Positions 4,206 to 51,815 of a stretch of DNA of 64,000 nucleotides are shown here, piece after piece. The notes below the pieces were generated by a model. It did no database searches, was not told the DNA's origin, and was given only the letters and a program-made list of their open reading frames with translations. The first letter of the stretch is position 1. The number at the start of each line of letters is the position of its first letter. The DNA is from Candidatus Eiseniibacteriota bacterium (GTDB lineage Bacteria > Eisenbacteria > RBG-16-71-46 > CAZEPH01), in contig JBGATO010000002.1 of NCBI GenBank assembly GCA_044229145.1, forward strand, positions 45,873 to 109,872, read 5' to 3'. The position numbers and the translations under genes are program-made.

Positions 4206-7200
4206 ATGCACCCCTGTGTCCGCCACGGCCTCCGCGCCGCCGCCTTGCTGTGCGCTCTCGCGCTCGCCCCCGTCGCCCACGCCGCCACCTCGGGCGACTA
4301 CCGCACCTACAACTCCGGCGACTGGTCCAACCAGGCCGTCTGGCAGAGGTACGACGGCTCGTCGTGGATCAACGTCTCGACCTCGCCGACCTCCGCCGAC
4401 GGCGCGATCACGATCCGCGACAGCATCACGGTCACCACCTCGGTGACCGTCGATCAAGTGACGGTGAACGCCGGCAGGCAGATCACGATCAAGCTCGGGA
4501 AGACGCTGACGCTCGCCGACGGCGCGGACACCGACCTCACGATCAACGGCACCGTGCTCAACCAGGGCACGCTCGCGCTCACCGGCAGCGCGACCTGGGC
4601 GGTCAACGACGGCGGGACCTACATCCACAACACCGTGTCGGCCGTCGCCACCTCGCTGGACGCGGCGACGCTCGGCGCCGCGAGCACGATCATCTACCGC
4701 GGCTCGGACACGCTCGATCCGCCGTCGAGTCTCGGCGGCCGCACGTACGGCCACTTGCGCTACGAGTCGACGTCCGGCGCGTGGTCGTTCAATCCGACGA
4801 CGGGCCAGCCGATCACCATCCTCGGCGACTTCTTCCTCGGCACCGGCGTGACCATGACCGCCGCGAATACCGGCGTCATGACTTTCGGCGGCAACTACAC
4901 GATCGACGGCACGCTGACCAATAGCGGCGGCACGCAGAAGTACACGTTCACCGGTGCGGCGGCCACCGTCGCGGGCGCGGGCGCGATCACCTTCGAGCAG
5001 TTCAGCGTCCCGGCGGGCGCCGACCTCACGCTGGCGGCGCCGGTGACGCTGGCGTCCGGCTTCACGGCGACGGTCGACGGCACGCTGGAGGCCAACGCGG
5101 CGCTCACGGCGAACAGCACGCCGCAGGTCAACGGGACGCTGCGCCTGAATGGCGGGTCGATCTCGAGCCAGCCGACCTATGGTGCGGCGTCGACGCTGGT
5201 GCTGAACGCGACCGGCGCCGTGGGGAACGAGTGGGGTGACTCCGGCAGCACCGCCGGGCCGGGCGTGCCGCAGAACGTCAGCGTCCTCTCCGGGACCGCG
5301 ACGATGCCGGCCGCCGCGCGCACCTGCCCCGGCACGCTGAGTCTCGACGGCGGGTCGCTCACGCTTGGCGGCGCCGACCTCACCGTGGGGCAATCGCTGG
5401 CCCTCACCAGCGGCGTGCTCGCCACCGGCGGCAACACCGTCATCCTCGCCAGCGGCGGCACGGTGACGCGCGGCACGGGCCAGGTGAACGGACTGCTGCG
5501 GAAGACGGTCCCCACCGGCGCGCCCAGCGTGACCTTCGAGATCGGCGACGGCGCGCGCTACACGCCGGTCAAACTCGACTTCGCCAGCGTGACCACCGCC
5601 GGTCCGGTGACGGCGGGCACCACGACCGGCGACAATCCCCAGCTCGCGACGTCGAAACTCGACGGCGCCAAGTCCGTGAACCGCTGGTGGACGCTCACGC
5701 CCGGCAGCTTCGTGTTCACCACCTGCGATGCCAAGTTCACCTTCGACCCGGCGGATGTGGACGCCGGCGCCACTCCGGCGAACTTCATCGTCGGGCGATA
5801 CGACTCCGCGGCGTGGAGCTACCCGGCTCTCGGCAACCTCACGACGACGAGCACGCAGGCCACCAACCTCACGGCCTTCGGCGATTTTGCCCTCGGGGAG
5901 ACGATCGCGTTCACGATCACCGCCACGGCCGGCGCGAACGGCAGCATCAACCCCAGCGGCGCGGTCAGCGTGACCTACGGCAACAACAAGAATTTCACGA
6001 TAGCGCCCAACCCCTCGTACTACGTGGAAGACGTGCTGGTGGATGGCGTGAGCGTCGGGGCGGTGGACAGCTACAAGTTCTTCGACGTGCGGGCCAACCA
6101 CACCATCGCCGTGTCGTTCGCGCTAGGAACGCTGGCGTATCGCTCGGCGGCATCGGGCAACTGGAACAGCCCGACGACATGGGAGGTGTTTGACGGCGCG
6201 GCGTGGGTCGCGGCCAGCGCGCTTCCCGATCCGTCGCTGGCCGGCCCGATCACCATCCGCAGCCCGCACGTCGTCACCTGCACGGACTCGCAGACGGTCG
6301 ACGAACTCACGGTAGATGCCGGCGCGACCCTCACCGTGAACGAAGGGGAGGCAGTCGCGGTGCAGGACGGCCCGGGGACCGACTTGGTATTGAACGGCAC
6401 CCTCCACAGCATGGGCACATGCTACATGGCCTTCACCTCAAACGGCGAGGTGAACGACGGCGGCAACTACATTATCTATGCGGCATCAAACGGCCAATTA
6501 GCCAACCTAGTACTCTCGGTCCACAGCACCGTTACCTATCGTACGGAAGATGGTGTCGGTCCCTTCCATGGGGACATGACGAGCTACGGAAACCTCGTGA
6601 TTGACGGGACAGGGGTCGTGGGATTTCAGGGTAACTTGGATCTCACCGTCAGAGGAGACTGCCTGATATTGGGGGCCTCGATGCATGTCACGGCAACGGG
6701 GACGCTTCGCTTCGCCGGGGACGTCACATGCCTATCGGGTTACTTCGATCTCGATCAGAACGATGAAGAAGGTCACACCCAGATTTGCGAGTTCACGGGC
6801 GTGGGGAAGACGGTCAGCGGCTCGTTCCCCCAAATGGAGCAGGTCAAGATCCCCACCGGGGCCGACATCACAATCGAGGGCCAGTTTGTCTTCCTTCCGG
6901 GATTCGAGTCCTCCATCGACGGCACTCTGCGCGCCCAAGGGGGGGACATCACCGCAGATGGGACGGTGCGGGTCAAGGGCACCGTGCGGCTCGCGGGCGG
7001 TCCAGGTAAAGTGAAAGGGACTGGATCATTCTCGTACACCGCCGGTGCGACGCTGATTTACGATGGCGATGTCACGATGGACGCCGTCTCGTGGCCCTCT
7101 GCAAATGGCCCTACCAAGGTGACCGTCAGCAGCGGCGCAAAACTCAACATGGGCGCAGCCGCGCGAACGGTGAGCGGGACATTCCGGACGGCGGGGATTG

Positions 7201-8279
7201 TGAAGGGCAACTCGGGTGCGCTCACACTCCCCGGCGTGACGCAGATCGATCCCGGCGGCTCCTTTAACTTCACGCCGACGTACACCACGGGCTCGACACT
7301 TGTGTACAACAGTTCGGCGACCGTCGGCTCCGAGTGGAAGGCTGGCTCGGTCGCCGGCCTCGGCGTACCACAAAACGTCACCATCCAGCCGGGCGTGGGC
7401 GCCGCCGTCTCGCTGCCCGCCACCGATCGCACCTGTCCGGGCACGCTGACGTTGACCAACGGCACGCTGGCGACGGGCAACGTGACGATGATCGCCGCCG
7501 GATCCGTCGTGCGCACCGGTGGCTGGGTGAATGGCCGCTTGCAGAAGCCTGTGGCGGCGGGTGCCGTGTCGCAGGTGTTCGCGATCGGCGACTCGACCCG
7601 CTACGCGCCGGTCCAGGTGAACTACACGTCGGTCTCGGTGGGCGGCACGGTGACCGCGTCGACGACGGCGGGCGATCACCCGAGCATCGCCAGCTCGCCG
7701 CTCAACCCGGCGAAGACGGCGAACCGCGTGTGGACGCTGACCAACGTGGGGACGGTGTTCGACTCGGCGGCGGTGACGGTCACCTTCGACCCGCTCGACG
7801 TGGACGCGGGGGCCGACCCGGCGGTGTTCCTCGTGGGGCGATTCACCGCGCCCTCGACGTGGACCGCGCCGGCCGTCGGCGCACGCACCGCGACGAGCAC
7901 GCAGGCGACGGGGCTCACGGCGTTCGGCGACTTTGCCGTGGGCGAGGCTCCGGCGCCGGTGGCGGTCGGTGACCCGTGGCTGGTGAGCACGGCGATCCCG
8001 GCGGCGACGGCGCTGTTGCCTGCTGCACCGAACCCGGCGCATGGAGTCGCGCACCTGCGCTTCGCCTTGCACGAGCGCGGACCGGTGCGCCTGGCCGTGT
8101 ACGACATCCGCGGGCGTCTCGTGCGCACGCTGCTGCGCGCCGACGCGATCGCCGGCACGCACGGCCTCGTGTGGGACACGCGTGACGCGAGCGGTCACGC
8201 GGTGGGCGCGGGGCTGTACCTGCTGCGGCTCGAGACGGGCGGACGCGCCGTCACCGGCCGCTTGCAGATCGTGCGCTAG
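4206..8279 (+). CDS. giant secreted repeat protein (adhesin-like) with TIGR04183-like C-terminal sorting domain
   Basis: ATG 4206. Signal peptide MHPCVRHGLRAAALLCALALAPVAHAATS. Two homologous ~600-aa halves separated by an InlB-B-repeat-like segment (FTITATAGANGSINPSGAVSVTYGNNKNFTIAPNPSYYVEDVLVDGVSV...HTIAVSF). C terminus NPAHGVAHLRF...VRLAVYDIRGRLVRTLL...GLYLLRLETGGRAVTGRLQIVR resembles a Por-secretion tail. Confidence 0.8.
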   Translation: MHPCVRHGLRAAALLCALALAPVAHAATSGDYRTYNSGDWSNQAVWQRYDGSSWINVSTSPTSADGAITIRDSITVTTSVTVDQVTVNAGRQITIKLGKTLTLADGADTDLTINGTVLNQGTLALTGSATWAVNDGGTYIHNTVSAVATSLDAATLGAASTIIYRGSDTLDPPSSLGGRTYGHLRYESTSGAWSFNPTTGQPITILGDFFLGTGVTMTAANTGVMTFGGNYTIDGTLTNSGGTQKYTFTGAAATVAGAGAITFEQFSVPAGADLTLAAPVTLASGFTATVDGTLEANAALTANSTPQVNGTLRLNGGSISSQPTYGAASTLVLNATGAVGNEWGDSGSTAGPGVPQNVSVLSGTATMPAAARTCPGTLSLDGGSLTLGGADLTVGQSLALTSGVLATGGNTVILASGGTVTRGTGQVNGLLRKTVPTGAPSVTFEIGDGARYTPVKLDFASVTTAGPVTAGTTTGDNPQLATSKLDGAKSVNRWWTLTPGSFVFTTCDAKFTFDPADVDAGATPANFIVGRYDSAAWSYPALGNLTTTSTQATNLTAFGDFALGETIAFTITATAGANGSINPSGAVSVTYGNNKNFTIAPNPSYYVEDVLVDGVSVGAVDSYKFFDVRANHTIAVSFALGTLAYRSAASGNWNSPTTWEVFDGAAWVAASALPDPSLAGPITIRSPHVVTCTDSQTVDELTVDAGATLTVNEGEAVAVQDGPGTDLVLNGTLHSMGTCYMAFTSNGEVNDGGNYIIYAASNGQLANLVLSVHSTVTYRTEDGVGPFHGDMTSYGNLVIDGTGVVGFQGNLDLTVRGDCLILGASMHVTATGTLRFAGDVTCLSGYFDLDQNDEEGHTQICEFTGVGKTVSGSFPQMEQVKIPTGADITIEGQFVFLPGFESSIDGTLRAQGGDITADGTVRVKGTVRLAGGPGKVKGTGSFSYTAGATLIYDGDVTMDAVSWPSANGPTKVTVSSGAKLNMGAAARTVSGTFRTAGIVKGNSGALTLPGVTQIDPGGSFNFTPTYTTGSTLVYNSSATVGSEWKAGSVAGLGVPQNVTIQPGVGAAVSLPATDRTCPGTLTLTNGTLATGNVTMIAAGSVVRTGGWVNGRLQKPVAAGAVSQVFAIGDSTRYAPVQVNYTSVSVGGTVTASTTAGDHPSIASSPLNPAKTANRVWTLTNVGTVFDSAAVTVTFDPLDVDAGADPAVFLVGRFTAPSTWTAPAVGARTATSTQATGLTAFGDFAVGEAPAPVAVGDPWLVSTAIPAATALLPAAPNPAHGVAHLRFALHERGPVRLAVYDIRGRLVRTLLRADAIAGTHGLVWDTRDASGHAVGAGLYLLRLETGGRAVTGRLQIVR
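4296..5900 (+). repeat. internal tandem duplication, copy 1 (within giant secreted protein gene)
   Basis: Residues ~31-565 (YRTYNSGDWSNQAVWQRYDGSSW ... TAFGDFALGE) align along their length with residues ~645-1240. Confidence 0.7.
6138..7926 (+). repeat. internal tandem duplication, copy 2 (within giant secreted protein gene)
   Basis: Residues ~645-1240 (YRSAASGNWNSPTTWEVFDGAAW ... TAFGDFAVGE). Shared blocks include STLV.N..A.VG.EW...GS.AG.GVPQNV and RTCPGTLSL/TLT, TFDP.DVDAGA.PA.F.VGR. Boundaries approximate. Confidence 0.7.
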
Positions 8280-11814: not shown

Positions 11815-12135
11815 CTACTCTCCGTACATCTCCGTCAGCGTGCGGCGGAGCGCGGACGCCTCGACGGCGGTGAGCCGTCCGATCTTGTCGCGCACACGCT
11901 TCTTGCTCACCGTGCGAATCTGATCGACCGCCACGTCGGCCGGTTGCCCCTCGCATTTGACCAGCACGCGTGACCGCCAGGTCGGCCTCGGTTGCGAGGT
12001 AAGCGGACACACCGTGATGGTGTGCAGGTGCCGATTCAGTTCGTCGAGACTGACGATGACGGCCGGCCGAGTCTTGCCGATCTCCGCGCCGCGCACGGGA
12101 TCGAACTCGACCCACACGATGTCGTAGCGCTTCAT
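11815..12135 (-). CDS. mazF: MazF/PemK-family type II toxin (mRNA interferase)
   Basis: Start MKRYDIVWVEFDPVRGAEIGKTRPAVIVS (cat 12133-12135), the classic PemK/MazF N-terminus. Overlaps the upstream antitoxin gene by 4 nt (ATGA). Confidence 0.8.
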   Translation of the reverse strand: MKRYDIVWVEFDPVRGAEIGKTRPAVIVSLDELNRHLHTITVCPLTSQPRPTWRSRVLVKCEGQPADVAVDQIRTVSKKRVRDKIGRLTAVEASALRRTLTEMYGE

Positions 12136-12455
12136 CGCCGCGGCTTCCGCGGCGACTTGGTTTTGTAGGCGGGAGCCTTTTCCGCGACCTTCGAGACCCA
12201 CGGGGCGGATTCGAGCCCGTCGGCATTCGTCGAATCCCATGCCGCCCAATCCTCGACGGCGGCTGCCATTTCACGCGCCGTATCAGCCCACGAGAGCTTC
12301 TCGGCGGCGTTTCCCGCGGGCCGCAGCAGGATGCCGTCGCTACGCTCCTCCATGATGACACTGTCGCCGATGTGGAAGCGCTTGAGCGTCGCGGCGGGAA
12401 TCCGCACGCCGCGCGAGTTGCCGATCTGGGCGATTTTCAGGCGGATAGCTGGCAT
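12132..12455 (-). CDS. mazE: MazE/AbrB-family antitoxin (SpoVT/AbrB domain)
   Basis: Start MPAIRLKIAQIGNSRGVRIPAATLKRFHIGDSV (cat 12453-12455), a swapped-hairpin AbrB fold. Lies immediately upstream of mazF and is translationally coupled to it. Confidence 0.75.
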   Translation of the reverse strand: MPAIRLKIAQIGNSRGVRIPAATLKRFHIGDSVIMEERSDGILLRPAGNAAEKLSWADTAREMAAAVEDWAAWDSTNADGLESAPWVSKVAEKAPAYKTKSPRKPRR

Positions 12456-14653: not shown

Positions 14654-15784
14654 ATGAGATTCCTGCACACCGCCGATTGGCATCTCGGCCGCATGCTCGC
14701 CGGCTACTCGCTGCTCGATGATCAAGCGCACGTCCTCGACCAGTTCGTCGCGCTGGTGCGCGAGACGCGGCCGGACGCCGTGCTGCTCGCCGGAGACGTC
14801 TACGATCGCGCGGTGCCGCCGGCCGACGCGGTCGCGTTGCTCGACGACACGGTCGCGCGTCTGGCGGCGTGCGGCGTGCCGCTCGTCGCGATCGCCGGGA
14901 ATCACGATAGCCCCGAGCGTCTCGGCTTCGGCAGCCGCCTTTTCGCGGGCGGCGGGGTCCACATCGCGGGGCCACTGGGGGCCACGCCGTTGCGCGTGCC
15001 GCTGGCGGACGCGCACGGGCCGCTGCACATCGTCGCGCTGCCGTACGCGGAGCCGGCGGTGGTGCGCGAGGTGCTCGGCCGCGACGACCTCGACTCGCAC
15101 GACGCGGCGATGGGCGCACTGTGCGACGTGGTGCGCGCGGCGACGCCGGCCGGCACGCGGGTGGTGCTCGTCGCGCACGCGTTCGTGGCGGGCGGCGAGG
15201 AGAGCGCGTCGGAGCGCGCGCTGAGCGTCGGTGGCAGCGGCGTCGTGGCGCCGGAGCGCTTCGACGGCTTCGCGTACGTGGCGCTTGGGCACTTGCATCG
15301 CCCGCAGTTGGCGGGCGGGCCGCGCGTGCGCTACAGCGGGTCGCTGCTCAAGTACTCGGCGAGCGAGGCGCTGCAGCGCAAGTCGGTGTCGCTCGTCGAG
15401 GTCGACGCGGCGGGCGCGGCGCAGGTCGAGGAGATCACGCTGGCGCCGCGGCGCGATTTGCGCGTGGTGACAGGCGAACTCGACACGCTGCTGCGCGAGC
15501 CGCCGAGTGACGACTACATCCACGTGCGCCTGCTCGACCGCGAGCCGCCGCACCAGCCGGCGGAGCGGTTGCGCGCGGTGTTTCCGTCTCTGCTCGGCGT
15601 CGAGTTCGCCGGTGTCGACGCGCCCGGCTCGCTGGATGTCACCGCGATCGAACGCACGCGCCGCCGCAGCGACCTCGAGGTGTTCGACGACTTCGTCCGC
15701 GCGATGACCGGCGAGGCGATGTCCGACGCGGAGCGCGAGGCGTTCGCGGCCGCCGTCGGCACGCGTGCGGAGGACGACGCGTGA
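14654..15784 (+). CDS. sbcD: exonuclease SbcCD, nuclease subunit D
   Basis: ATG 14654. MRFLHTADWHLGRML...LLAGDVYDR...IAGNHDSP...GHLHRP: the Mre11/SbcD calcineurin-like phosphoesterase motifs I-V. Confidence 0.9.
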   Translation: MRFLHTADWHLGRMLAGYSLLDDQAHVLDQFVALVRETRPDAVLLAGDVYDRAVPPADAVALLDDTVARLAACGVPLVAIAGNHDSPERLGFGSRLFAGGGVHIAGPLGATPLRVPLADAHGPLHIVALPYAEPAVVREVLGRDDLDSHDAAMGALCDVVRAATPAGTRVVLVAHAFVAGGEESASERALSVGGSGVVAPERFDGFAYVALGHLHRPQLAGGPRVRYSGSLLKYSASEALQRKSVSLVEVDAAGAAQVEEITLAPRRDLRVVTGELDTLLREPPSDDYIHVRLLDREPPHQPAERLRAVFPSLLGVEFAGVDAPGSLDVTAIERTRRRSDLEVFDDFVRAMTGEAMSDAEREAFAAAVGTRAEDDA

Positions 15785-18700
15785 AGCCGCTGCGGCTACG
15801 TCTCCGCGCCTTTGGCGCCTTCGCCGGCGAGTGCGACCTCGACTTCCGCACCCTCGGCGCGCGCACCTTCTTCCTCATCCACGGGCCCACGGGCGCGGGG
15901 AAGTCGACCATCCTCGACGCGCTCTGCTTCGCCCTGTACGGCGAAAGCTCCGGCGACGAGCGCAGCGGCGCGCAACTGCGCTCCGATTACGCCGCGCCCG
16001 AGACGCCGACCGACGTCACGCTCGACTTCGCCGTCGGACGCGAGATCTACCGTGTCCAGCGCGCGCCTGAATACGAACGGGCGAAGAAGCGCGGCGAGGG
16101 CACCACGACCGTGAAGGCGTCGGCGACGTTGTGGCGCCGCACTGGCTGCGCGCGCGACGAGGACGAGGGCCGCGTGCTGGCCGCCAAGCCGAGCGACGCG
16201 ACGAAGGAAATCGAGCGCTTGCTCGGCTTCCGCGCCGAGGAGTTCCGCCACGTCGTCGTGTTGCCGCAGGGCCGCTTCCGCGAGGTGCTGACGTCGTCGA
16301 CGGACGATCGCAAGGCGATCTTCGAGAAGCTGTTCCGCACCGCGCGGTTCGCGTCGGTGCAGAAGACGCTCGACACGCGGGCGAAGGAGGCGCGGCGCGC
16401 GCTCGACGACGCGCTGACGGCGGTGCAGGCGCTACTCGATCGCGCCGGCGTCGCGGACGATGCCGGACTCGCCGCGCAGGTGGGCGAGCTGGCCGCGGCG
16501 GAAACGGCGGCGGCGGCGGCGTTGCAGACGGCGGCCGCGGCCGAGGCGCATGCGCGTGCGACGTTGCAGGCGGCGCAGGAGGTCGACGCGAAGTTCGTCG
16601 AGGCGGCGAACGCCGATGCGGCGCTGACCGCGTTGGAAGCGGAGCAGGCGACGCATGTCGCGCGTGCCGCGCGGCTGGAGGCCGCCGGGCGCGCGACGCA
16701 CGTGGACGCCGCGGCGCAGGCGGCGGTGACGGCGGGCGAGGAGGTTGCCCGCGCGCAGACCCGCGCGGATCAGGCCGGCGTGGCCGCGTCGGAGGCAACT
16801 GCGCGCGCGGCGCAGGCGAGCGAGGCGCGGGCGACGCGGAGGCGCGCGTGCCGGAGCAGGCCGCCGCGCGCCGAGGAGGCGTGGGCTCGACGCGCTCGCC
16901 GTGCATGCGAGTGCGTGGGACAGAGGCGCGTGGGAGCATGGCGGAGGCGGCGCGGACGGCGCTCGACGCTGCGGGGCGCGCGACGGCCGCGGGTGCGGCG
17001 GAAGCGTGCGACGCCGCGCGCCTCGGCGCGGCGAACGCCGCCGTCGCCGCGACGCCTGCGCGCCGAGGCCGCGAAGGCAGAGGCCGCGCGCCGCGCCGCC
17101 TCCGACGCGGCGGCGCTCTGCACGACGGCACAACAGGCCGCCGACCTCGCTCGCACGCTGGCGACAGAGCGCGATGTCGTCGAGAGCGACCAGGGCGCCG
17201 TCGCCCGCGCGCAGGAGATGGCTGCCGCCGCCCACGAGCAGGTCGCCGCGTGCAGCTGCGTGGCTCGCAGATCAGGCGGCGCTGCTCGCCGCGCGCCTCG
17301 TCGACGGCGAGCCGTGCGCCGTCTGCGGCGCCCGCACCCGGCGCCGGCGCGCGTCGACGGTGGCGGCGTCTCGTCCGGTGACCTCACCACCGCGCGCGAC
17401 GCCGCGCGTACCGCCGATGCCGCGGTGGCCACTGCGCTCGAAGCGCTCGGACGCTCGCAGGCTGCCGTCGCACGCTCCGAGGAGAAACTCGCCGGCCTGC
17501 TCCGCGCACTGCCCGCTTTCGAGGGCGACGTCGACGCGCATGTGCCGGCTGGCGCGCCGTCGCCGAGGACGCGGCGGCGAGCCGCCGCGGCCGAGGAGGC
17601 GGCGAGCCGGCTCCCCGCATTGCAGGCCGCCGCGGACGCGGCATCCGCCGCCTTGCGACCGCCAGCACCGCCGCCGACACCGCGCGCGGCGACGTGCAGC
17701 GCCTCGAAGGCGCGGCGGCGGCGGCCGCCGCTGCCCTTGCCCGCGCCGAGGCCGCGCTCCCGCCGGGTGGCGCTCGGCGCGACGGCGCCCTCGAGGCCGC
17801 GCGCACCGCGCACCAGGCGACGATCGAGGCCATCGATGCCGCGCCCACGCAGAGCCGCGCCGACGATCGACCGCCGCCCAGGCCGCCGTGGCGGCGGCCG
17901 CCGCCACGGCCGCACGCGAGCACCTCGCCGAGCGCACGACCGCCGCCACCGCCGCCGAATCCGCCTTCCTCGCCGCATGCACAGCGCATGGATTCGCCGA
18001 CGCCACCGCCTACCGCGCCGCGCGACTCGACGCCGCGGAACACGCCGCCCTGCGCGCTGCCCACGACGCGCACGAGCAAGCGCTCGCCGCCGCCCGCGAC
18101 CGCCGCGACCGCGCCGCCGCCGCGCTCGACGGTCTCGCACGCCCTGACCTCGCCGCCGCGCGCGACGCGGACGCCGCCGCCACCGCGCAGCGCACCGCCG
18201 CCGCCACCGCGCACGGCACGGCGCGCGAACGCCACGCCGCCGCCGTCGCCACGCGCGCGAGATCGCCACGCGCCGCGCCGCGCGCCGAGGATGAAGCGCG
18301 CTACCGCACGCTGCAGCGCCTCGCCGACCTCGCCTCCGGCAAGTCGACGCCGCGCCGCATCGACTTCCACACCTACGTGCAACTCGCGTATCTCGCCGAC
18401 GTGCTCGCCGCCGCCAGCCGCCGTTTGCTGGCGATGACAGGCGGCCGCTTCCGCCTCGTCACCCACGAGGCGGCACTCGACAAGCGCGCGAAGGAAGGTC
18501 TCGACATCGACGTGTTCGACGCGAACACCGGCGCCGTGCGCTCGGCCCGCACGCTCTCGGGCGGCGAAGGCTTCATGGCGGCGCTCAGTCTGGCGCTCGG
18601 CCTCGCCGACGTCGTGCAGCGCACCACCGGCGGCATCCACCTCGACACCATCTTCGTCGACGAAGGATTCGGCAGCCTCGATCAAGAATCGCTGGACGCC

Positions 18701-18846
18701 GCGATGCGTGCCCTGGTGGACTTGCAGGAAGGCGGCCGCATGGTCGGCGTGATCTCGCACGTCACCGAAATGCTGCAGCAGATCCCAACGCGCCTCGAGG
18801 TCCGCGGCGGCCGCGGCGGCAGCAGCGCGCGGTTCGTCATCGGATG
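15781..18846 (+). pseudogene. sbcC: exonuclease SbcCD ATPase subunit C; reading frame disrupted (pseudogene or sequencing indels)
   Basis: GTG 15781 overlaps the sbcD stop. N-terminal Walker A FLIHGPTGAGKST in frame 1 is intact to ~16850. The zinc hook LVDGEPCAVCGA (~17310) is only in frame 2. HPAPARVDGG...ALEALGRSQAAVARSEEKLAGLL is back in frame 1. QRLEGAAAAAAAALARAEAAL is in frame 0. From ~17870, signature and Walker B/D-loop (TLSGGEGFMAALSLALGLADV...IFVDEGFGSLD) are in frame 2 to the stop at 18846. Total length (~1022 codons) is as expected for SbcC. Confidence 0.7.
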
Positions 18847-20166
18847 AGGAGAATCCCCGTGAAGCGTCTCGCCCTCGCGGCCGCGCTGTCGTGCGTGCCG
18901 CTCGTCTCCCATGCCGCGCTCGCCCCGGCCGAACGTCGCCTCGCGCAGGCAGTCACGAAGCGCGAGCCGGCCGCGCAGGCGTTCCTCCACCGCGTCGTCG
19001 ACATCAACAGCGGCACGATGAACTTCGACGGCGTGCGCGAGGTCGCGAAGGCATTCGCGCCGGAGTTCGAGAAGCTCGGATTCACGACACGCTGGGTCGA
19101 CGGCGCGGGGTGGCATCGCGCCGGACATCTCATCGCCACCCGCGCCGCCGCGAAGCGTGGCGCGCCACAGGTGCTGCTGATCGGCCACCTCGACACCGTC
19201 TTCGAGAAGGACAGCCCGTTCCAACGCATGACGCCGCTCACCGACTCGACCGCTACCGGCCCGGGCCTCAGCGACATGAAGGGCGGCGACGTCGTCGTGC
19301 TCCTCGCGCTCCAGGCGATGCGCGACGCCGGCGTGCTCGACCGCATGACCGTCACCGTCTTCCTCTGCGGCGACGAGGAAAAGCGCGGCGAGCCGGAAGA
19401 CCTCGCGCGCGGCGATCTCCTCGCCGCGGCACGCGACGCCGACATCGCGCTCGGCTTCGAGGACGGCGACGGCGACCCCGGCCACGCGGTCATCGCGCGG
19501 CGCGGGTCGATGGGGTGGACGCTACGCGTGCACGGGACACCGTCGCACTCGTCGCAAATCTTCCGCGCCGACATCGGCATGGGCGCGGTGTACGAGGCCG
19601 CGCGTCTGCTCACCGCGTTTCGCGACTCGCTCGGTGGCGATCCGCTGCTCACCTTCAACGCCGGCCTCATCCTCGGCGGAACGACGGTCACCCACGACCC
19701 GCAGACGAGCAGCGGCACCGCGTTCGGCAAGACCAACGTCGTCCCCGAGAGCACCATCGTGAAGGGCGACCTGCGCGCGATCAGCCCGGAACGCTTCGAT
19801 GAGGCGCGGGCGACGATGACACGGATCGTCGCCGCGTCGTCGCCGCACACCAGCGCCACCATCGTCTTCGGCGACCGCTATCCGCCGCTCGCGCCGACGC
19901 CCGGCAACGATGCGCTGCGCGCGCTCTACAGCGCGGCGAGCCGCGATCTCGGCTACGGGGAGGTCACCGCGATGGATCCGTCACGCGCCGGCGCCGCCGA
20001 CATCTCGTACACGGCGGGTTTGGTCGGAGGCGCCATCGACGGCATCGGCATGCGCGGCGATCAAGAACACACGGTCGGCGAATGGGCGAACCTGCGCTGG
20101 CTGCCGCGCCAAGCGCAACGCTTGGCCGTGACGCTGACACGCTGGGCCGCGGGGCGCGGCCGCTAG
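18844..20166 (+). CDS. M20-family metallopeptidase (carboxypeptidase G2-like), secreted
   Basis: ATG 18844 (alternative GTG 18859). Signal peptide. M20 motifs HLDTV, DMKGG, CGDEE. Confidence 0.85.
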   Translation: MRRIPVKRLALAAALSCVPLVSHAALAPAERRLAQAVTKREPAAQAFLHRVVDINSGTMNFDGVREVAKAFAPEFEKLGFTTRWVDGAGWHRAGHLIATRAAAKRGAPQVLLIGHLDTVFEKDSPFQRMTPLTDSTATGPGLSDMKGGDVVVLLALQAMRDAGVLDRMTVTVFLCGDEEKRGEPEDLARGDLLAAARDADIALGFEDGDGDPGHAVIARRGSMGWTLRVHGTPSHSSQIFRADIGMGAVYEAARLLTAFRDSLGGDPLLTFNAGLILGGTTVTHDPQTSSGTAFGKTNVVPESTIVKGDLRAISPERFDEARATMTRIVAASSPHTSATIVFGDRYPPLAPTPGNDALRALYSAASRDLGYGEVTAMDPSRAGAADISYTAGLVGGAIDGIGMRGDQEHTVGEWANLRWLPRQAQRLAVTLTRWAAGRGR

Positions 20167-28301: not shown

Positions 28302-29858
28302 CTAGCGTGCGACGCGGACGAGGCGCGTCGTGGCGCTGACCGCACTGTCGGTGCCGAGTCGCGCGAAGTAGATCCCCGCCGCCAGGCGGGTGTCGGTCCA
28401 GCGAACGATCCAGGGCGTCGCGGCATCGCGATGCTGCCACCGGCGGACGAGCCGGCCCCGCGCGTCGAGGATCGACAGCACGGCGTCGCGTGCCGGCGAG
28501 GCGATGCGGAATTCCCAGCCGTTCGCGAGCTGCCGGGTCTGCACCACGGGCGGCGCTTCGGTGGGCGCGGAGACATCGGCGGGACCCGCGTAGCGAATGC
28601 GCCGCAGTTCTCCGCTCGGATTGAGGAAGTCGGTGAACAAGAGCAGGTAGTAGATCGCGCCATCGGGCCCAACGTCCACCGACGATAGCAGCCACGGCAA
28701 GTTGGTCACCTTCGCCCAGTTCACCGAATCGGGCTGCCCAGGCTCGCGCGCCACGGTGCCCCACGTGCCGTCGCCGCGATCGCCCAGCATCCGCATCCAC
28801 CGTTGGAATCCGTCGGCGCACACGTAACGGCCTTCGTACGACGCCGGCATCGGGAAGCGCTGGCCGCTGCGTCCGCGGATCACGCCGCCACCGAGCACGG
28901 CGGAGCCAGTCGGCGGATTGTGTGCGTAGACGTAGACGGGAAAGGTGAAGCCCATCGCGGTGTCCGGCTGCACGCACGATTGGCCGTACTGCGTGCGCTG
29001 GAAGCCTTCGAAGTACTCCCATCCGAGATTCAGCCCGCCGCCGGTCACGCGGTCGATCTCCTCCCACGATTGATCGCCGACGTCGGCGATGAACAGTGCG
29101 CCGGTGGCATCGTCCACGTCGAGGCTGAACGGATTGCGCACGCCGAGCAGCCACACCAGACGCGTCCACTCGTTCGCACTTGCGACGAACGGATTCGTCG
29201 CCGGTGTGATCACCGACTTCGCCGGCGGGCCGCCCGGCCCATCGGGCAAACCGCTGACATCGAGACGCAGGATCTTGCCGCGCGGATCCGCCAGTGAGGG
29301 CGACGTGCACTCCAATGCGTCATTGCCCGAGCAGACGTAGAGCATGCCGTCGGTGCCGAAGCGCAGACCGCCGCCGTTGTGGACCGCGTACATGTCCGGC
29401 ATGTCGGCGAGCACGAGGTAACGCGATGCCGGATCGGCCGTCATCACGCCGTTCCCGCTGAAGGCGACATCGCCCTGTAGCGTATAGCGCGCCAGGCGCA
29501 TCGTCTGCGCGCCGGAGAACGTGTAGTAGACGTAGAGATACGGCGCGGCGGGGAAGCGCGGGTCGACGGCGACGCCGAGGAGTCCCTGCTCCCAATCGCC
29601 GTAGCGCACGCTGTCGAGTGTCGCCACTGGCGCGGCGACGAGCGTGTCGCGCACGATCTCTCGCACCTTTCCGCTCGCCGTCTCGGTGATCAGCAGGCGG
29701 CCGTCGGGCAGGAATGCCATGCCCGCAGGGCGGTTCATGCCGCCCCGGGCGAGTGTCTCGTCGAGGAAGCCGGTGGGCAGCAGCACGGTCTGCGCGCGCG
29801 CGGACACCGCAGTGCAGACGAGGACGCAGACGAGGACGACGAGACGTGGGACGCGCAT
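28302..29858 (-). CDS. PQQ/GSDH-like (soluble quinoprotein sugar dehydrogenase family) beta-propeller with C-terminal sorting domain
   Basis: Start MRVPRLVVLVCVLVCTAVSARAQ (cat 29856-29858). Propeller blocks (GLLGVAVDP, LRFGTDGMLYV). C terminus ILDARGRLVRRW...AAGIYFARLGTDSAVSATTRLVRVAR is TIGR04183-like. Confidence 0.8.
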   Translation of the reverse strand: MRVPRLVVLVCVLVCTAVSARAQTVLLPTGFLDETLARGGMNRPAGMAFLPDGRLLITETASGKVREIVRDTLVAAPVATLDSVRYGDWEQGLLGVAVDPRFPAAPYLYVYYTFSGAQTMRLARYTLQGDVAFSGNGVMTADPASRYLVLADMPDMYAVHNGGGLRFGTDGMLYVCSGNDALECTSPSLADPRGKILRLDVSGLPDGPGGPPAKSVITPATNPFVASANEWTRLVWLLGVRNPFSLDVDDATGALFIADVGDQSWEEIDRVTGGGLNLGWEYFEGFQRTQYGQSCVQPDTAMGFTFPVYVYAHNPPTGSAVLGGGVIRGRSGQRFPMPASYEGRYVCADGFQRWMRMLGDRGDGTWGTVAREPGQPDSVNWAKVTNLPWLLSSVDVGPDGAIYYLLLFTDFLNPSGELRRIRYAGPADVSAPTEAPPVVQTRQLANGWEFRIASPARDAVLSILDARGRLVRRWQHRDAATPWIVRWTDTRLAAGIYFARLGTDSAVSATTRLVRVAR

Positions 29859-31981: not shown

Positions 31982-34780
31982 ATGCGCTCGACGTCCTGCG
32001 CACCGCGTCTCGTGACGTGGTGCCTCCCTCTGCTTGCCCTCGTCCCCCTCGCCTCCGCGAGCGGGGCTACACGCACCGGTTCCGTCCCTCGTGCCGCAAT
32101 CTCGCGCGATCCCGACAATCGCCTGGCGGCCAGCCGCGTGTGGCGCGGTTTTCCAGGCGCCACGGTGGCCGCCGGCGACATCGCCGCGTCTGCCACCGAC
32201 GGGTCGATGTCGACCGCCGTCACGATGCCGGCCGGCGAAGCGCTCGAATTCCAGTTCATCGGCGCCCCCCGCTGGCTCAGCGAGATCACGGTGCAGACGG
32301 ATGCGCCCCTGTGGCGGGTGGACGTGCGCGGACTCGACGGCCAGTGGACGACGTTCGGCGCTGGCTCCTCGCACGGTGTCGAGCAGCCGGTGACGTTGAC
32401 GGGCGAGGCGGTGCAGGCAGTCGGAGTGCGCTTCGTGCCCGCCGCCGCAGCACCGTCGGCTCCGGCCGTGCGGCTGGCGGAGATCGCCGCGCACTTCCGG
32501 TATCACGATCCCGATGACGCCGGCCGTGCCGCAGCGGGTAACACCTATCACTCAGATTGGGTGAATCACTATTCCGGCGACACCAACGACCTGAGCAAAT
32601 GCGACGACGACTCGCGTGATCTGCGCGACGCCCTGCAGAACCACAGTTGGACGACGTGGGAACACACCGAGACGAACGCGCACGAAGCGCACTTCAAGTC
32701 GACCATCATCGGGACAGGCGACAACAACGATCACGCGGACAACGCGGATCTTGCGTACTTCTCCGGCCATGGCTCGAGCGGCACCGTCGATCCGGTGTAT
32801 ACCGGGACCGCGTTGGGCTCGATGCTGTTCGACGACGAAACACACGATGACGCCACGCTGGTGCCGAGCGACATGGACGATTCGTGGGGCAACGGCGAGA
32901 TGGAGTGGCTGATCTCCACGTCCTGCCGCACCCTGCGCGGCGAAGGGCGCCCGTACTGGAAGTGGGGCATGGAAGGCGTGCATCTGCTCTGCGGCTCGGA
33001 ATCGTCGATCGCCGACCAGTCGTATGGAGACGTTCTCGGCGACGAGTTGATCGACAACGGCATCTTCGACAGCCCGATCACCGTGAAGCAGGCGTGGTTC
33101 GACGCGATGGAGGAGTGGAACGGCGGGCACGACGTGGCGGTCGTGCAGGGCGAAACATCGGTGATGGGCACCGATTTCATCTGGGGCGAAGGGTCCGTTT
33201 CCGCAGATCCTGTCGTCGACAACACCTCATTCGTCTGGCTCTACGATGTGGGAGCCACTGCGCCGTCGCGCGGCCAGCTCCCGGCGGTGCCGCGCCTGCA
33301 CGATCCCGTGCGAATCCGCGCGGCCGGCCGTGCCGCCTGGACGGTGCGTCTCGAACGTGCCGAACTCGAGCGCCCAGCGGCGGCGCAGATGCCGGTGTGG
33401 AACGTGGTGCCGCGCATGGTCGATTCGGTGTACGTGCGCAACCTGTCCAACCAGGTGTGCGGCGTGTACGGCCAGCTGTGCGCCACCGACATCGGGATCG
33501 GCGCGCCGAATGAATACACCAGTGTCCAGGGGCCCTACCAACTGCGCGTGCGCACCGAGACCGGCGGCCTCTCGCTGACCGACGTGTCGAATTGGATGTC
33601 GGTGCGGGCGATTCCGCCGCAGCTGCTCACCGGACAGGCGGCGCTCACTCAGGCGGATCAAATCCTCACGCAGTTGAATTTCAGGCCGGCGGATGCGACC
33701 GCCACAGGGGTGTCCTACCTCTGGCAGCGCGGCGAGAGCGCCACCGGACCCGGCTCGCTGGCGGCCGGGGACACCAGCTTTGCGATCGCCACGAAGGTGA
33801 CGTTTACGCGGCGGGTCGGCAGCGGCGAAGGCTATCCGGTCTTCGGCCCGGGCGCCTCGATCTCCGTCACCATGGGGCACAATGGGGCGCTTCAGCGGAT
33901 CTTCGGCCGCGGGTGGCGGCAACTGTCGCAGGGTGCCCAGGCGACGATTCTCCCGCTCAGCACACTGCTGCCGTCGCTCTCGGCGCTCGGCAACGGCGCC
34001 TTGCTCGACCCGGTGCGGCAGCCGATCGACAGCCTGGTGATCACCAATTGGGAGCTCGGCTACTTCGAACCGGGATGCCGGGAAGCGGTGAACTCGTTGC
34101 GCCCCACGTACCGGCTGCACTGCATCTGCTACGAAGGCACGACCACGTTCGCCGCGGACTTCTCGATGTACGCGGACGCGCTGCCGCTCAACGCGACCAT
34201 TCTCACGCCCGTGGAGGACTTCACGATTCCGCCGGGCGGCAGTGTCTGCTTCAACGGATCGGCCAACGGCGGCACTTCGCCGTACAGCGCGGAGTGGGTG
34301 CACGACGACGGCGAGATCTTCAGTGGCTGGATGTGGTGCCGCACGCTCGGCATGCCGGCCGACCCGCACTCGAACCAGGACAGCGTCCGCACCATGACGC
34401 TCCGGGTCACCGACAGCCGCGGCGCGGTCGCGGAGGCGAAAGTCCACGTCCGTCTGGCGACGGTGACTGCGGCGGATCTCGGCACGGGCGCCCAGGCCGG
34501 CGACGGCTTCCAATCCGTGCCGTCCGTGCTGCGGGATGGCGCCACGCTCGGCTTCCGGGTGCCGGACGGCGGCGGACGCGGGCCGGTTTCGCTGCGTCTC
34601 GTCGACCCTTCGGGGCGCATCGTGCGGACTCTCTTCGAGGGACACCCGGGCGACGGCGCGACGACTGTCCGCTGGAGCCGGTCGGACGCGACGGGAGGGA
34701 AGCTCGCGGCGGGCGTGTACTGGCTCATTCTCGACGCGCCCGCGCTCCACCAATCGCGGCGCATCATCGTCGTCGACTAA
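31982..34780 (+). CDS. secreted 932-aa protein with putative clan-CD-like peptidase module and C-terminal sorting domain
   Basis: ATG 31982 with GGAGGA RBS. Signal peptide MRSTSCAPRLVTWCLPLLALVPLASASG. His-Gly ... Cys dyad candidates (ADLAYFSGHGSSG ... WLISTSCRTLRGE). C terminus VSLRLVDPSGRIVRTLF...AAGVYWLILDAPALHQSRRIIVVD is TIGR04183-like. Confidence 0.75.
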   Translation: MRSTSCAPRLVTWCLPLLALVPLASASGATRTGSVPRAAISRDPDNRLAASRVWRGFPGATVAAGDIAASATDGSMSTAVTMPAGEALEFQFIGAPRWLSEITVQTDAPLWRVDVRGLDGQWTTFGAGSSHGVEQPVTLTGEAVQAVGVRFVPAAAAPSAPAVRLAEIAAHFRYHDPDDAGRAAAGNTYHSDWVNHYSGDTNDLSKCDDDSRDLRDALQNHSWTTWEHTETNAHEAHFKSTIIGTGDNNDHADNADLAYFSGHGSSGTVDPVYTGTALGSMLFDDETHDDATLVPSDMDDSWGNGEMEWLISTSCRTLRGEGRPYWKWGMEGVHLLCGSESSIADQSYGDVLGDELIDNGIFDSPITVKQAWFDAMEEWNGGHDVAVVQGETSVMGTDFIWGEGSVSADPVVDNTSFVWLYDVGATAPSRGQLPAVPRLHDPVRIRAAGRAAWTVRLERAELERPAAAQMPVWNVVPRMVDSVYVRNLSNQVCGVYGQLCATDIGIGAPNEYTSVQGPYQLRVRTETGGLSLTDVSNWMSVRAIPPQLLTGQAALTQADQILTQLNFRPADATATGVSYLWQRGESATGPGSLAAGDTSFAIATKVTFTRRVGSGEGYPVFGPGASISVTMGHNGALQRIFGRGWRQLSQGAQATILPLSTLLPSLSALGNGALLDPVRQPIDSLVITNWELGYFEPGCREAVNSLRPTYRLHCICYEGTTTFAADFSMYADALPLNATILTPVEDFTIPPGGSVCFNGSANGGTSPYSAEWVHDDGEIFSGWMWCRTLGMPADPHSNQDSVRTMTLRVTDSRGAVAEAKVHVRLATVTAADLGTGAQAGDGFQSVPSVLRDGATLGFRVPDGGGRGPVSLRLVDPSGRIVRTLFEGHPGDGATTVRWSRSDATGGKLAAGVYWLILDAPALHQSRRIIVVD

Positions 34781-47013: not shown

Positions 47014-48513
47014 TTACTCGGTGAGCAGAATGGTGCCCGTGGCGCGGGCGCCCTGTGACTCGACGTCGAGCCGGTACACGCCGTGCGGCAGGCGCCGCCC
47101 GGTGGAATCGTGCCCATCCCAACTCACGGTGCGTTCGCCGCGTGCGCCGTCGACGTGCCACCGCCGCACCACGCGTCCCCGCACGTCGCTGAGCAGCAGG
47201 CGCGTGGCGCCGGCGTCGGCTTGCGCCCAGCACAGCCGCGCCCGGCTCGACGTCGTCCCGCGCACCTGCAGGGACGATTCCGACGCCGGCGGAGGCGCCA
47301 CGGCCGTGACGGTCGGCTCGAGTCGCCACACCGCGTTGCTGGTGAGATCGACGATGTGCAGGATGCCGTCGGGATCGAGATCGAAATCGGTCACCGCGCC
47401 GAATCCCTGGCCCCAGGTCAGTGAGGCAACCTCGCTCGTGTTGTTGTCCGCGACGCGATCGGCGAGCAGCGGATCGCTCAGCACGAACGAATCGCGCGAC
47501 GCCGCCATCGGGAACAGGTACAGCCTGCCGAAGTTGTTGTCGCCGACGATGCACTGATCTTGCAGCGCCGGACCGTAGTGCGGCGTGTGCAGGAAGAGGA
47601 TCGCGCACGGCGTCACCACCTGCGCCCACGAGAACTCCGGATCGCTGTACGCGGCGCCGGGCGCCATCCAGAGATCCGCGACGCCCTTCGGCGAGCGCGC
47701 GTCGGGCCCGACGATCTGTTCCCAGCCGCCGTTCATGCCCGGCGTGATGCGATTGATCTCGTCGTAACTGGTGGGCCCCGGCTCGGTGTTCCACAGTGTG
47801 CCGGTGAGCGGATCGAAGGTCATGCCGAAGCAGTTGCGCAGGCCGTACGAGTACACCAGCTCCATGCGTGTCACGCCGGCGAACGGATTGTCGGCGGGCG
47901 CGCTGCCATCGTCGTTCATGCGCATGACGACGCCGGTGGTGTCCGGCGCCGGTCCGGCCGGATAGTTCTGCAACTTGCCGTTGCGATTGAGTTCGCCGAT
48001 CACCGCGTAGAGTTTGCCATCGGGACCGAACTGCAGGATACCGCCGTCGTGATTCGGGCCCGGCGTGACCTCGAGCCGCTGGATGATGGTCGGCGTCGTG
48101 AGCGCGCTGCCCGTCCACGTATAGCGCACGATGCGATTGTCGAGCGCCTGCGTCGAGTTGCTGGTGTCGTTGAGCGTCGAGCTCTGCGTGAAGTAGACGT
48201 AGACCCACGGCGTCGCCGGGAACTGCGGGTGCAAGGCGATGCCGAGCAGGCCGCGCTCGCTCGCCGAGTTGACGGCGACATCGAGCACCGGCGCCGGCTG
48301 CAAGACGCCGCCGATGACGCGCTGCACGCGGCCGGTGGTCTTCTCGCACACCAAGAAATCGCCGCGATCGAGGAACACCATGGTGGTCGGCGAGTTGAGG
48401 CCAGTGACCACCGCGGTGACCTTGAGCGTGGTGTCCGCCATCGTCGGCGCCGCCAGGGCAGGCCGCGCGCAGGCGACGACGAGCAGCGTGAGGGCACGAC
48501 CGAGCATTCGCAT
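47014..48513 (-). CDS. PQQ/GSDH-like beta-propeller with C-terminal sorting domain (paralog of 28302-29858)
   Basis: Start MRMLGRALTLLVVACARPALA (alternative ATGs 48525, 48507). Propeller blocks (GLLGIALHP, LQFGPDGKLY). C terminus LLSDVRGRVVRRWHV...HGVYRLDVESQGARATGTILLTE. Confidence 0.8.
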   Translation of the reverse strand: MRMLGRALTLLVVACARPALAAPTMADTTLKVTAVVTGLNSPTTMVFLDRGDFLVCEKTTGRVQRVIGGVLQPAPVLDVAVNSASERGLLGIALHPQFPATPWVYVYFTQSSTLNDTSNSTQALDNRIVRYTWTGSALTTPTIIQRLEVTPGPNHDGGILQFGPDGKLYAVIGELNRNGKLQNYPAGPAPDTTGVVMRMNDDGSAPADNPFAGVTRMELVYSYGLRNCFGMTFDPLTGTLWNTEPGPTSYDEINRITPGMNGGWEQIVGPDARSPKGVADLWMAPGAAYSDPEFSWAQVVTPCAILFLHTPHYGPALQDQCIVGDNNFGRLYLFPMAASRDSFVLSDPLLADRVADNNTSEVASLTWGQGFGAVTDFDLDPDGILHIVDLTSNAVWRLEPTVTAVAPPPASESSLQVRGTTSSRARLCWAQADAGATRLLLSDVRGRVVRRWHVDGARGERTVSWDGHDSTGRRLPHGVYRLDVESQGARATGTILLTE

Positions 48514-48721
48514 GGGAGGGCGCATCCTTTCCGAGAGGGTGTGCTGAGTGTGCCACAGGCCGCGGGCGCACACTAGTCGCGGGCCAGCCGATGGCCGGAC
48601 GCTCAGGAAAACCCCGCAGGCGTGGCGTCGTTCCGCTCGACCGGCGGCGGGTCATCGCCGATACTCCGGCCGCGCCGCCGCGCAGGCAACTTCCGGCTCC
48701 CACTCACCTTGCGAGGATGTC

Positions 48722-50756: not shown

Positions 50757-51815
50757 CTACTTCTGGTCGCCCTGCATCGATCCATCCACCGTCGCCGCCA
50801 TGTCGACGACGTGCGGCGTCAACACGAGATACGTCTTCCACGACGAATGCGACTTCGAACGGTGACTGAACAGGAATGGCAGGATGTGCCCGAGGCCGGG
50901 CACGCTGACCTCGCTCTTGCTGTCGCTGGTGCGATCGAATCCGCCGAGGAGCACCGGCTGGCCATCACGCGTGACGACCTCGTTCTCGATCATCTGGCCG
51001 ACCTTGCTGAGGCCCCCGCCCTGGAGCGAGCTGAGAGCGCACATCTCCGCGCGAACCGCGAGCCGGAGCGTGCCGCCCGCACCGAGTGACGGCAGCACGC
51101 TCAGCGTGACACCGGCGTCGAGCGAGTCGGTCTGGAACAACGAATTGTACGAGGCGAAGCGCGCCAAATAGACGACACGCGCACCGTCGAGAATCGTCGC
51201 GCGGCGGTTGTTGAGCGTGACCACGCGCGGCACCGTGCGGGTGTGCGCCCAGCCTTTGGATTCCGCGAGGCGGATCGACGCGCCCCATCCCAGATCGGCA
51301 TCGAACCCAAGCAGCTTACGCGTCGTCGTTTGCTTCGGTGTCTTGTTGGATCCGGTGGATGCGTCCCACTGCGACCGAGTGAAGTAGTCGGCTTGCGATG
51401 TGACCGACCCAAGGGACGTGTTCCACAGGAGACCGCCGGCGCGCGCCTTGTCCTCGTCGATCTGCACGATCTGCGCATCGAGCACGATCTGGTGCGGCGC
51501 GACATCGGCGGCACGCGCGAGGTCCTGGATGGCTTGCACGTCGGCCGCGTCGCCCTGGACGACGAGCAGATTCGCGGTGTCCTGCACGAGGACGCGCACA
51601 TCGTGGCCGGGGGCCATCGAGGCGACGAAGCCAGTGCCGTCGGTGCGGGCGCCGAGGAACTGCAACAGCTCGCGTGGAGGCACGTACGACGGAGTGATCG
51701 ACGCCACGGTCGCACCGGCCACGCTGGCCAGGGCAATCGCGACGAGTACACCGGCGCTTCCCACCACACGCCGAGCCGCGCGTGCGGTGTGGAACCTGCG
51801 AAGGTCAAGAATCAT
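50757..51815 (-). CDS. secretin-family outer-membrane channel protein (short, 352 aa)
   Basis: ATG 51815. Signal/anchor. C-terminal secretin domain (VTLSVLPSLGAGGTLRLAV...VVTRDGQPVLLGGF...VPGLGHILPFLFSHRSKSHSSWKTYLVLTPHVVD). Confidence 0.8.
   Translation of the reverse strand: MILDLRRFHTARAARRVVGSAGVLVAIALASVAGATVASITPSYVPPRELLQFLGARTDGTGFVASMAPGHDVRVLVQDTANLLVVQGDAADVQAIQDLARAADVAPHQIVLDAQIVQIDEDKARAGGLLWNTSLGSVTSQADYFTRSQWDASTGSNKTPKQTTTRKLLGFDADLGWGASIRLAESKGWAHTRTVPRVVTLNNRRATILDGARVVYLARFASYNSLFQTDSLDAGVTLSVLPSLGAGGTLRLAVRAEMCALSSLQGGGLSKVGQMIENEVVTRDGQPVLLGGFDRTSDSKSEVSVPGLGHILPFLFSHRSKSHSSWKTYLVLTPHVVDMAATVDGSMQGDQK

Follow-up and report, generated by a model that had tools for sequence, protein, structure and literature searches.

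A 1357-residue Eisenbacteria protein with two old paralogous units of predicted β-helix type, an InlB-B-repeat-like spacer and a putative C-terminal sorting tail

The 64 kb window analyzed here, the whole stretch taken from contig JBGATO010000002.1 of a Candidatus Eiseniibacteriota bacterium, contains at positions 4206-8279 of the forward strand a gene for a large protein of 1357 amino acids (aa) in which a unit of ~540-600 aa is present twice. Each unit is predicted to comprise a head, a right-handed β-helix stalk and a conserved β-sandwich end domain, and the protein additionally has a signal peptide, a spacer domain between the units and a C-terminal domain of the sorting type. The parts of the module were delimited by iterated local hidden Markov models (HMMs) on 101 proteins from a homology search, and the assignments, with the evidence used for each, are as follows.

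4206..8279, + strand: complete coding sequence with ATG start, 1357 aa plus stop, a stand-alone gene
4206..4283, + strand: signal peptide, residues 1-26 (MHPCVRHGLRAAALLCALALAPVAHA, cleaved before A), by inspection
4287..4595, + strand: head A, residues 28-130, the N-terminal start of the β-helix (local HMM and AlphaFold2 (AF2) model)
4596..5378, + strand: β-helix body A, residues 131-391, including a sub-repeat at residues 322-389 (nucleotides (nt) 5169-5372; AF2 solenoid strands)
5379..5903, + strand: end domain A, residues 392-566, all-β, closing the module (HMM and AF2)
5904..6137, + strand: spacer, residues 567-644, a divergent InlB B-repeat, PF18998-like (HMM and AF2)
6126..6443, + strand: head B, residues 641-746 (BLASTP and HMM)
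6444..7427, + strand: β-helix body B, residues 747-1074 (BLASTP and phmmer)
7080..7193, + strand: degenerate sub-repeat in body B, residues 959-996 (phmmer)
7275..7478, + strand: clear sub-repeat, residues 1024-1091, running from body B into end domain B (phmmer)
7428..7949, + strand: end domain B, residues 1075-1248 (HMM; 53% identical to end domain A)
7950..8021, + strand: Ala/Pro-rich linker, residues 1249-1272 (sequence; without a domain match)
8022..8276, + strand: C-terminal sorting-type domain, residues 1273-1357, FlgD_ig/type IX secretion system (T9SS) type-A-like (Pfam and NCBIfam HMMs)

The open reading frame is present exactly where the initial annotation, which was made from the sequence alone, had placed it. 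Its coding signal is strong, with a G+C content at third codon positions of 0.89 in a window of ~70% G+C and a codon log-odds of 517, the maximum in the window, and a GAGG motif is located 7 nt 5' of the ATG; no sites were returned by a promoter and terminator scan. The product, which is rich in Thr, Gly and Ala, is already on the NCBI record as an identical but nameless protein (P0001). As judged by eye, residues 1-26 have the basic n-region, hydrophobic core and AHA↓A site of a Sec-type signal peptide, in agreement with the earlier designation of the protein as secreted. Assignment as a lipoprotein was rejected by inspection, given the poor lipobox.

The internal duplication is real. When residues 1-640 were compared with residues 641-1357 by BLASTP with composition-based statistics, residues 32-565 and 645-1247 were joined in a single collinear match of 37% identity over 618 columns, 99 of them gap columns, at an E value of 4e-85, confirming the two homologous units that had been proposed. 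The Smith-Waterman score of unit A versus unit B was 865, whereas 200 shuffled versions of unit B scored 83.6 ± 12.8, which corresponds to z = 61. Because the head (z = 30), the body (z = 21) and the end domain (z = 52) were each significant alone in the same type of comparison, the match is not an effect of the Thr/Gly/Ala-rich composition. The duplication had also been described as exact, which it is not: the protein identity is that given above, and in the DNA only ~370 nt of the last part of the unit, in the end domain, could be aligned, at 67%. With DNA identity at that level and confined to one sub-region, a recent duplication or an assembly artefact was rejected, and the duplication is old. 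Unit B is longer than unit A because it has an extra copy of a ~68-aa sub-repeat with the pattern TY..STL.YN...G.EW...GVP.NV....P...RTCPG.L. Unit A has one copy (residues 322-389), whereas in unit B there is a degenerate copy at residues 959-996 (phmmer independent E value (i-E) 0.01) and a clear one at residues 1024-1091 (i-E 5e-17); P0002, the closest homologue, has four.

Comparison of the units with their relatives provided information on the history of the duplication. Unit A matched the single unit of the homologue P0006 with 51% identity over 542 columns (403 bits) versus 37% (269 bits) for its match to unit B, and for unit B the full-length match with the highest score was unit A (257 bits), ahead of P0004 (224 bits). 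Conservation within the unit is highest in the end domain (53% identity between the two copies, compared to 37% for the heads) and lowest in the body. The two end domains rank 5th and 8th among each other's relatives (best outsider 57% identical) and the two heads rank 37th and 35th of ~88 (outsiders 50-56%). Since units A and B are thus not nearest neighbours when taken domain by domain, their history is either an ancient duplication with a faster-diverging unit B or the fusion of two distinct paralogous modules.

The anatomy of the module was supported by both sequence profiles and structural models. Head A, which has the motif GDYR..SGxW....W...DG..W....PTS.DG.ITI, was modelled with a local predicted local distance difference test (pLDDT) score of ~90-97 (model m900c3c9a1548), and the head HMM identified 88 instances in 69 of the 101 homologues. 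The Pfam scan produced no match to G8 (PF10162) in the 1357-aa protein at E <= 1, and positions 1-41 of that model were matched only by the head of the homologue P0017. The AF2 model of unit A with the spacer (617 aa, from an 18-sequence alignment) had a pLDDT of 92.1 and a predicted template modelling (pTM) score of 0.83, and showed dozens of short β-strands arranged as a solenoid, with two compact β domains after them. The best Foldseek matches of this model in the PDB, all of them weak, were the passengers of Hbp, Hap, IgA1 protease, SepA, EspC, EspP and Ag43, and phage tailspikes, which are also right-handed β-helix proteins, were among the weak matches as well; a viral fold search returned nothing. 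The end domain on its own (175 aa, 53-sequence alignment) was modelled as an all-β structure with a pLDDT of 97.4 and a pTM of 0.92. When the PDB was searched with sequence profiles of the end domain, the spacer and the whole unit, all matches were at chance level. The models indicate that each unit is a head with a right-handed β-helix stalk and a conserved β-sandwich end domain, and a fold-level assignment is therefore now possible for a repeat unit to which it had been considered that no function could be assigned.

The long right-handed parallel β-helix stalk, a surface-displayed scaffold, is the feature that the 1357-aa protein has in common with the type V autotransporters (Hbp, Hap, IgA1 protease and Ag43), which are its best, if weak, fold matches, and several of its homologues have been given autotransporter names by the Joint Genome Institute (JGI). 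However, the protein does not have a C-terminal β-barrel translocator (no autotransporter or PATR family matched at E <= 1), its export tag is a different one, and a dedicated end domain of β-sandwich fold caps its helix.

The label of InlB-B-repeat-like that had been given to the spacer is right in substance, as judged from sequence comparisons. The spacer aligned over essentially the whole PF18998 profile (positions 2-70 of 73, E 0.004), but its own score of 17.5 bits is below the cut-off of 23.6. In contrast, 19 of 20 aligned spacer relatives (35-60% identical) matched PF18998, with a best E value of 1.2e-15. The spacer shares 45-60% identity with repeats that score above the cut-off of the model and 60-70% with repeats at the homologue loci L021, L016 and L006, and in the AF2 model it has seven strands with a pLDDT of ~95. 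The spacer domain in homologues is found directly after the end domain in arrays of up to ten copies, as in P0003, P0004 and P0005 (6-10 copies), whereas in the 1357-aa protein it is a single, sub-threshold copy. We regard it as a divergent member of the PF18998 family.

The end domain proved to be very widespread. An exhaustive profile search identified 6,451 representatives (50% clustering) at E <= 1e-3 and 1,797 at E <= 1e-30, and the proteins bearing the domain are up to 5,419 aa in length with up to 11 copies each. Using two short patterns, 288 relatives were found among species-representative genomes, in phyla including Ignavibacteriota, Bacteroidota, Acidobacteriota, Gemmatimonadota, Chloroflexota, Eisenbacteria, Latescibacterota, Planctomycetota, WOR-3 and Patescibacteria; the spread of the family is more than ten phyla. 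The end domain was among others found at Patescibacteria loci (L026, L046, L053 and L060) and Chloroflexia loci (L022, L037 and L040). A scan of the genome collection with the 1357-aa protein as the single query returned no relative, and the best whole-protein locus in that collection is in an Eisenbacteria metagenome-assembled genome (MAG) of 71% G+C (L061), with 38.6% identity over residues 24-648. The SdhA encoded in the window is 74-76% identical to proteins bearing the name Candidatus Eisenbacteria, although the named match of highest score, from a MAG, has a Verrucomicrobia label.

The head-to-end module was present in 83 of the 101 homologues and often in tandem, including head-end-head-end tandems in P0028, P0031, P0032, P0034, P0035, P0037, P0043 and P0051. 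At least two end domains were present in 122 of 224 end-domain proteins, one of which has eleven, in a set that is biased to high-scoring, multi-copy proteins. Even allowing for this bias, the gene-internal repetition of the module is a habit of the family and not an oddity, contrary to the view that such a duplication is uncommon. None of the 101 homologues has exactly the same architecture as the 1357-aa protein, and the nearest relatives are 41-52% identical over one unit only. The C-terminal parts of the homologues are very varied (FlgD_ig or T9SS tails, PATR repeats, Big_3_5 arrays, DUF6701 and peptidase C25), and the module is therefore a portable building block. In two MshQ-like homologues, P0083 and P0087, a single head-to-end module is located N-terminal to DUF6701 (PF20419); the 1357-aa protein differs from these in having neither DUF6701 nor a link to a pilus operon. 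Nothing relevant was returned by a literature search on MshQ/DUF6701 and FlgD-Ig tags.

Despite these numbers, the family is poorly annotated. The copies of Pfam and NCBIfam that were searched hold no model for the unit or the end domain, in either the 1357-aa protein or its relatives, and no NCBIfam model matched any of 18 unit sequences. Three Pfam families outside the searched copy, PF28238, PF28243 and PF28247, are precomputed on MshQ-like homologues and might cover related regions. Those homologues that have names are called "fibronectin-binding autotransporter adhesin", "autotransporter-associated beta strand protein" or "beta strand repeat-containing protein". The 1357-aa protein is thus unexceptional within a class of surface proteins that is very large and poorly annotated, and its duplication is typical of that class.

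The C-terminal tail passes the FlgD_ig model (PF13860; 28.6 bits, cut-off 27, residues 1294-1343) and, marginally, TIGR04183 (23.8 bits, cut-off 23, residues 1274-1353), which is the sorting-tail model to which it had initially been compared. The tails of homologues had TIGR04183 scores of 53.5 (P0009), 33.7 (P0008), 30.1 (P0006), 29.3 (P0007), 26.7 (P0002), 25.1 (P0005), 24.2 (P0016) and 17.0 bits (P0004), and show similarity to the C-terminal domains of PorU, PorZ and T9SS-dependent proteases as well. Similar tails are present on other proteins of the window. The protein encoded at 47014-48573 (- strand) has a signal peptide, a glucose/sorbosone dehydrogenase (GSDH) β-propeller and a FlgD_ig-type tail (32.5 bits), and is presumed to be a second cargo of the same sorting route. 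The protein encoded at 32012-34780 (+ strand) has a signal peptide, DUF6345 and a tail like that of the 1357-aa protein (phmmer 4e-6); its start codon is uncertain, as a better signal peptide is obtained from an upstream Met. A second GSDH paralogue is encoded at 28302-29858 (- strand), in which no C-terminal tail was detected. The contigs of P0002, P0006 and P0005 (L080, L081 and L082) encode 3-5 FlgD_ig-tailed proteins per 20-26 kb, with passengers that include He_PIG, FG-GAP, NHL and lactonase; in that lineage, the secretome of tail-tagged proteins appears to be very large. Since the tail is shared by unrelated passengers with signal peptides and is dense on the homologue contigs, it behaves as a sorting tag. 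The only secretion-related gene in the window is a lone secretin of the type II secretion system/type IV pilus type (Secretin plus Secretin_N) at 50757-51767 (- strand), with no other genes of a secretion or pilus operon apparent nearby.

Taking these results together, we consider it fairly probable that the 1357-aa protein is a Sec-exported protein of the "giant β-helix adhesin" kind, fibre-like and located at the cell surface or outside the cell, that is composed of two old paralogous modules and sorted by its C-terminal tag. Its anatomy, homology and folds, and the presence of the tag on unrelated exported proteins, are established by the analyses above; the export route, surface display and adhesion are what we infer from them. 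The protein would be exported by Sec into the periplasm, where its tag would be recognised by a T9SS-like outer-membrane pathway, and a rigid two-segment stalk would then be displayed or released. In this reading, the single Ig-like InlB-B-repeat domain would serve as the hinge between the two rigid β-helix segments, and the conserved end domains would provide the interaction (binding) surfaces. A binding or adhesive role is suggested by three features, namely how the protein is built, its resemblance to autotransporter passengers, and a conservation that is concentrated in the end domains and not in the helix. In this respect, the initial proposal of a likely surface or secreted adhesin-like cargo is backed by the signal peptide, the tail and the module architecture, with adhesion as its predicted component.

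The closest parallel for such a protein is found in the T9SS type-A cargos of Bacteroidota, which likewise have a signal peptide, a large β-rich passenger and a ~85-aa C-terminal β-sandwich tag that is common to unrelated exported proteins of the same genome, and which also pass TIGR04183. However, the lineage of the 1357-aa protein is not Bacteroidota, the machinery was not seen in the window, and the tail is nearer to FlgD_ig than to canonical Por tails. Several results weigh against the reading of a tag-sorted adhesin. The TIGR04183 margin of the tail is just 0.8 bit and the tail fails PF18962 (16.6 bits, cut-off 27), which leaves it at the margin of the T9SS type-A family; the tails of the 47014-48573 and 32012-34780 proteins miss TIGR04183 at E <= 0.1; and there were no T9SS core genes (SprA/Sov, PorV, PorU, GldK/L/M/N) among the ~50 genes scanned in the 64 kb window. 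With regard to structure, neither the unit model nor the end-domain model had a PDB fold match at E <= 0.001. To our knowledge, T9SS is not known in Patescibacteria or Chloroflexia, and some of those lineages are thought to have no outer membrane. The occurrence of the module in MAGs from both groups therefore makes it independent of, and uninformative on, the export route.

The alternative that survives best, which we nonetheless regard as unlikely, is that, in this lineage, the tail does not function as a T9SS signal but is a FlgD-Ig-like domain that either serves another route of export or anchoring or is a functional Ig-like domain. The FlgD_ig score of the tail is above its scores with the T9SS models, the tails of the GSDH and DUF6345 proteins match FlgD models only, the window is without T9SS genes, and no link between Eisenbacteria and T9SS was found in a literature search. 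Conversely, the domain invariably forms the very C-terminal end of proteins that have a signal peptide and whose passengers are unrelated, and the tails of homologues grade into strong TIGR04183 matches and match the C-terminal domains of PorU, PorZ and T9SS proteases. It has been noted in a review that T9SS may exist in phyla of the Fibrobacterota-Chlorobiota-Bacteroidota (FCB) group beyond Bacteroidota, e.g. Gemmatimonadetes and Ignavibacteriota (PMC11285876).

It is less probable again that the β-helix modules are not passive stalks or adhesins but enzymes secreted for the degradation of extracellular polymers, for instance polysaccharide lyases or hydrolases like the pectate lyases or tailspikes. 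Tailspike depolymerases (K2-2 TSP, CBA120 TSP4, HK620 and Dettilon) are indeed among the weak fold matches of the unit, and other tail-bearing proteins of the window are enzymes, e.g. the GSDH protein. However, the match probability for the tailspikes was only 0.06-0.13, there was no lyase, hydrolase or Beta_helix match in Pfam or NCBIfam at E <= 1, and the helix body, where the unit is least conserved, contrasts with the end domain, in which the conserved positions are situated.

The end domain itself raises a further question, in that its nearest solved folds are the ZU5, GAIN and FIIND domains (ankyrin, UNC5, adhesion G-protein-coupled receptors, NLRP1 and CARD8). These matches, all weak, include the FIIND of rat NLRP1 (E 0.008, probability 0.99, template modelling (TM) score 0.38), the GAIN domain of BAI3 (probability 0.96, TM 0.42) and the ZU5 domain of ankyrin (TM 0.47), with the CD97 GAIN domain, CARD8 FIIND and UNC5b also matched. 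The position of the end domain is also like that of GAIN, at the junction where a long extracellular region meets the following part of the protein. It differs in that the TM scores are just 0.38-0.47, there is no sequence similarity or conserved cleavage motif, and the matched structures are from animals whereas the 1357-aa protein is bacterial. The last strand carries an F-(G/S)-D-F motif, whose second residue, among 335 non-redundant end-domain instances, is Gly in 58% and Ser in 33%, and which has Gly in both copies here; the "SFSDF" of Ser-bearing end domains resembles the FIIND cleavage site SF↓S, although the His is not conserved. A search of the last strands for a cleavage motif of the GAIN/FIIND type (HL↓T/S or SF↓S) found no conserved His, Ser, Thr or Cys. 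We see a slim prospect that this ~175-aa domain is an undescribed bacterial family, perhaps related in evolution or mechanism to the eukaryotic ZU5/GAIN/FIIND domains, that may act as a specialised junction at the end of β-helix modules in giant surface proteins, in ligand binding or, in the Ser-bearing third, in self-cleavage. The most remote of the alternatives is that it is a bacterial autoproteolytic sandwich of the ZU5/GAIN/FIIND type that cleaves itself and so ends each module in a non-covalent junction releasable by force or signal, a proposal in whose favour the top Foldseek matches fall consistently on these folds (probabilities up to 0.99, for the isolated domain and the whole unit alike) and the motif Ser is present in about a third of the family, but which is very improbable given that no His, Ser, Thr or Cys is conserved at the last strands.

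The genes surrounding that of the 1357-aa protein are unrelated to it (MFS, EamA and a PD40 β-propeller, with a tryptophan dioxygenase on the opposite strand), and no conserved neighbours were found across the homologue loci compared. An operon partner was accordingly rejected, as the flanking genes are unrelated and there is no synteny with the homologue loci. Elsewhere in the window there is a gene for a MazF/PemK-type toxin at 11815-12249 (- strand; 94 bits). At 14654-18847 (+ strand), a stretch of very high G+C content (0.78 at 16-18 kb) lies between SbcD and the C-terminal part of SbcC; the codon-based gene caller found no clean open reading frame in this stretch, which is probably the coiled-coil region of SbcC.

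Taken by itself, the 1357-aa protein is simply another large surface protein without annotation, from an uncultured soil or sediment lineage. Its wider value is descriptive, in that it exemplifies a recurrent head/β-helix/end-domain module from which thousands of giant proteins in many phyla are built. The data on the tail provide additional evidence that C-terminal tags of the FlgD-Ig-like kind serve as general sorting signals outside Bacteroidota, in lineages whose export machinery is unstudied. The most useful by-product of the analysis is the definition of the end domain, together with a confident model of it, as a domain that is not covered by the libraries searched.

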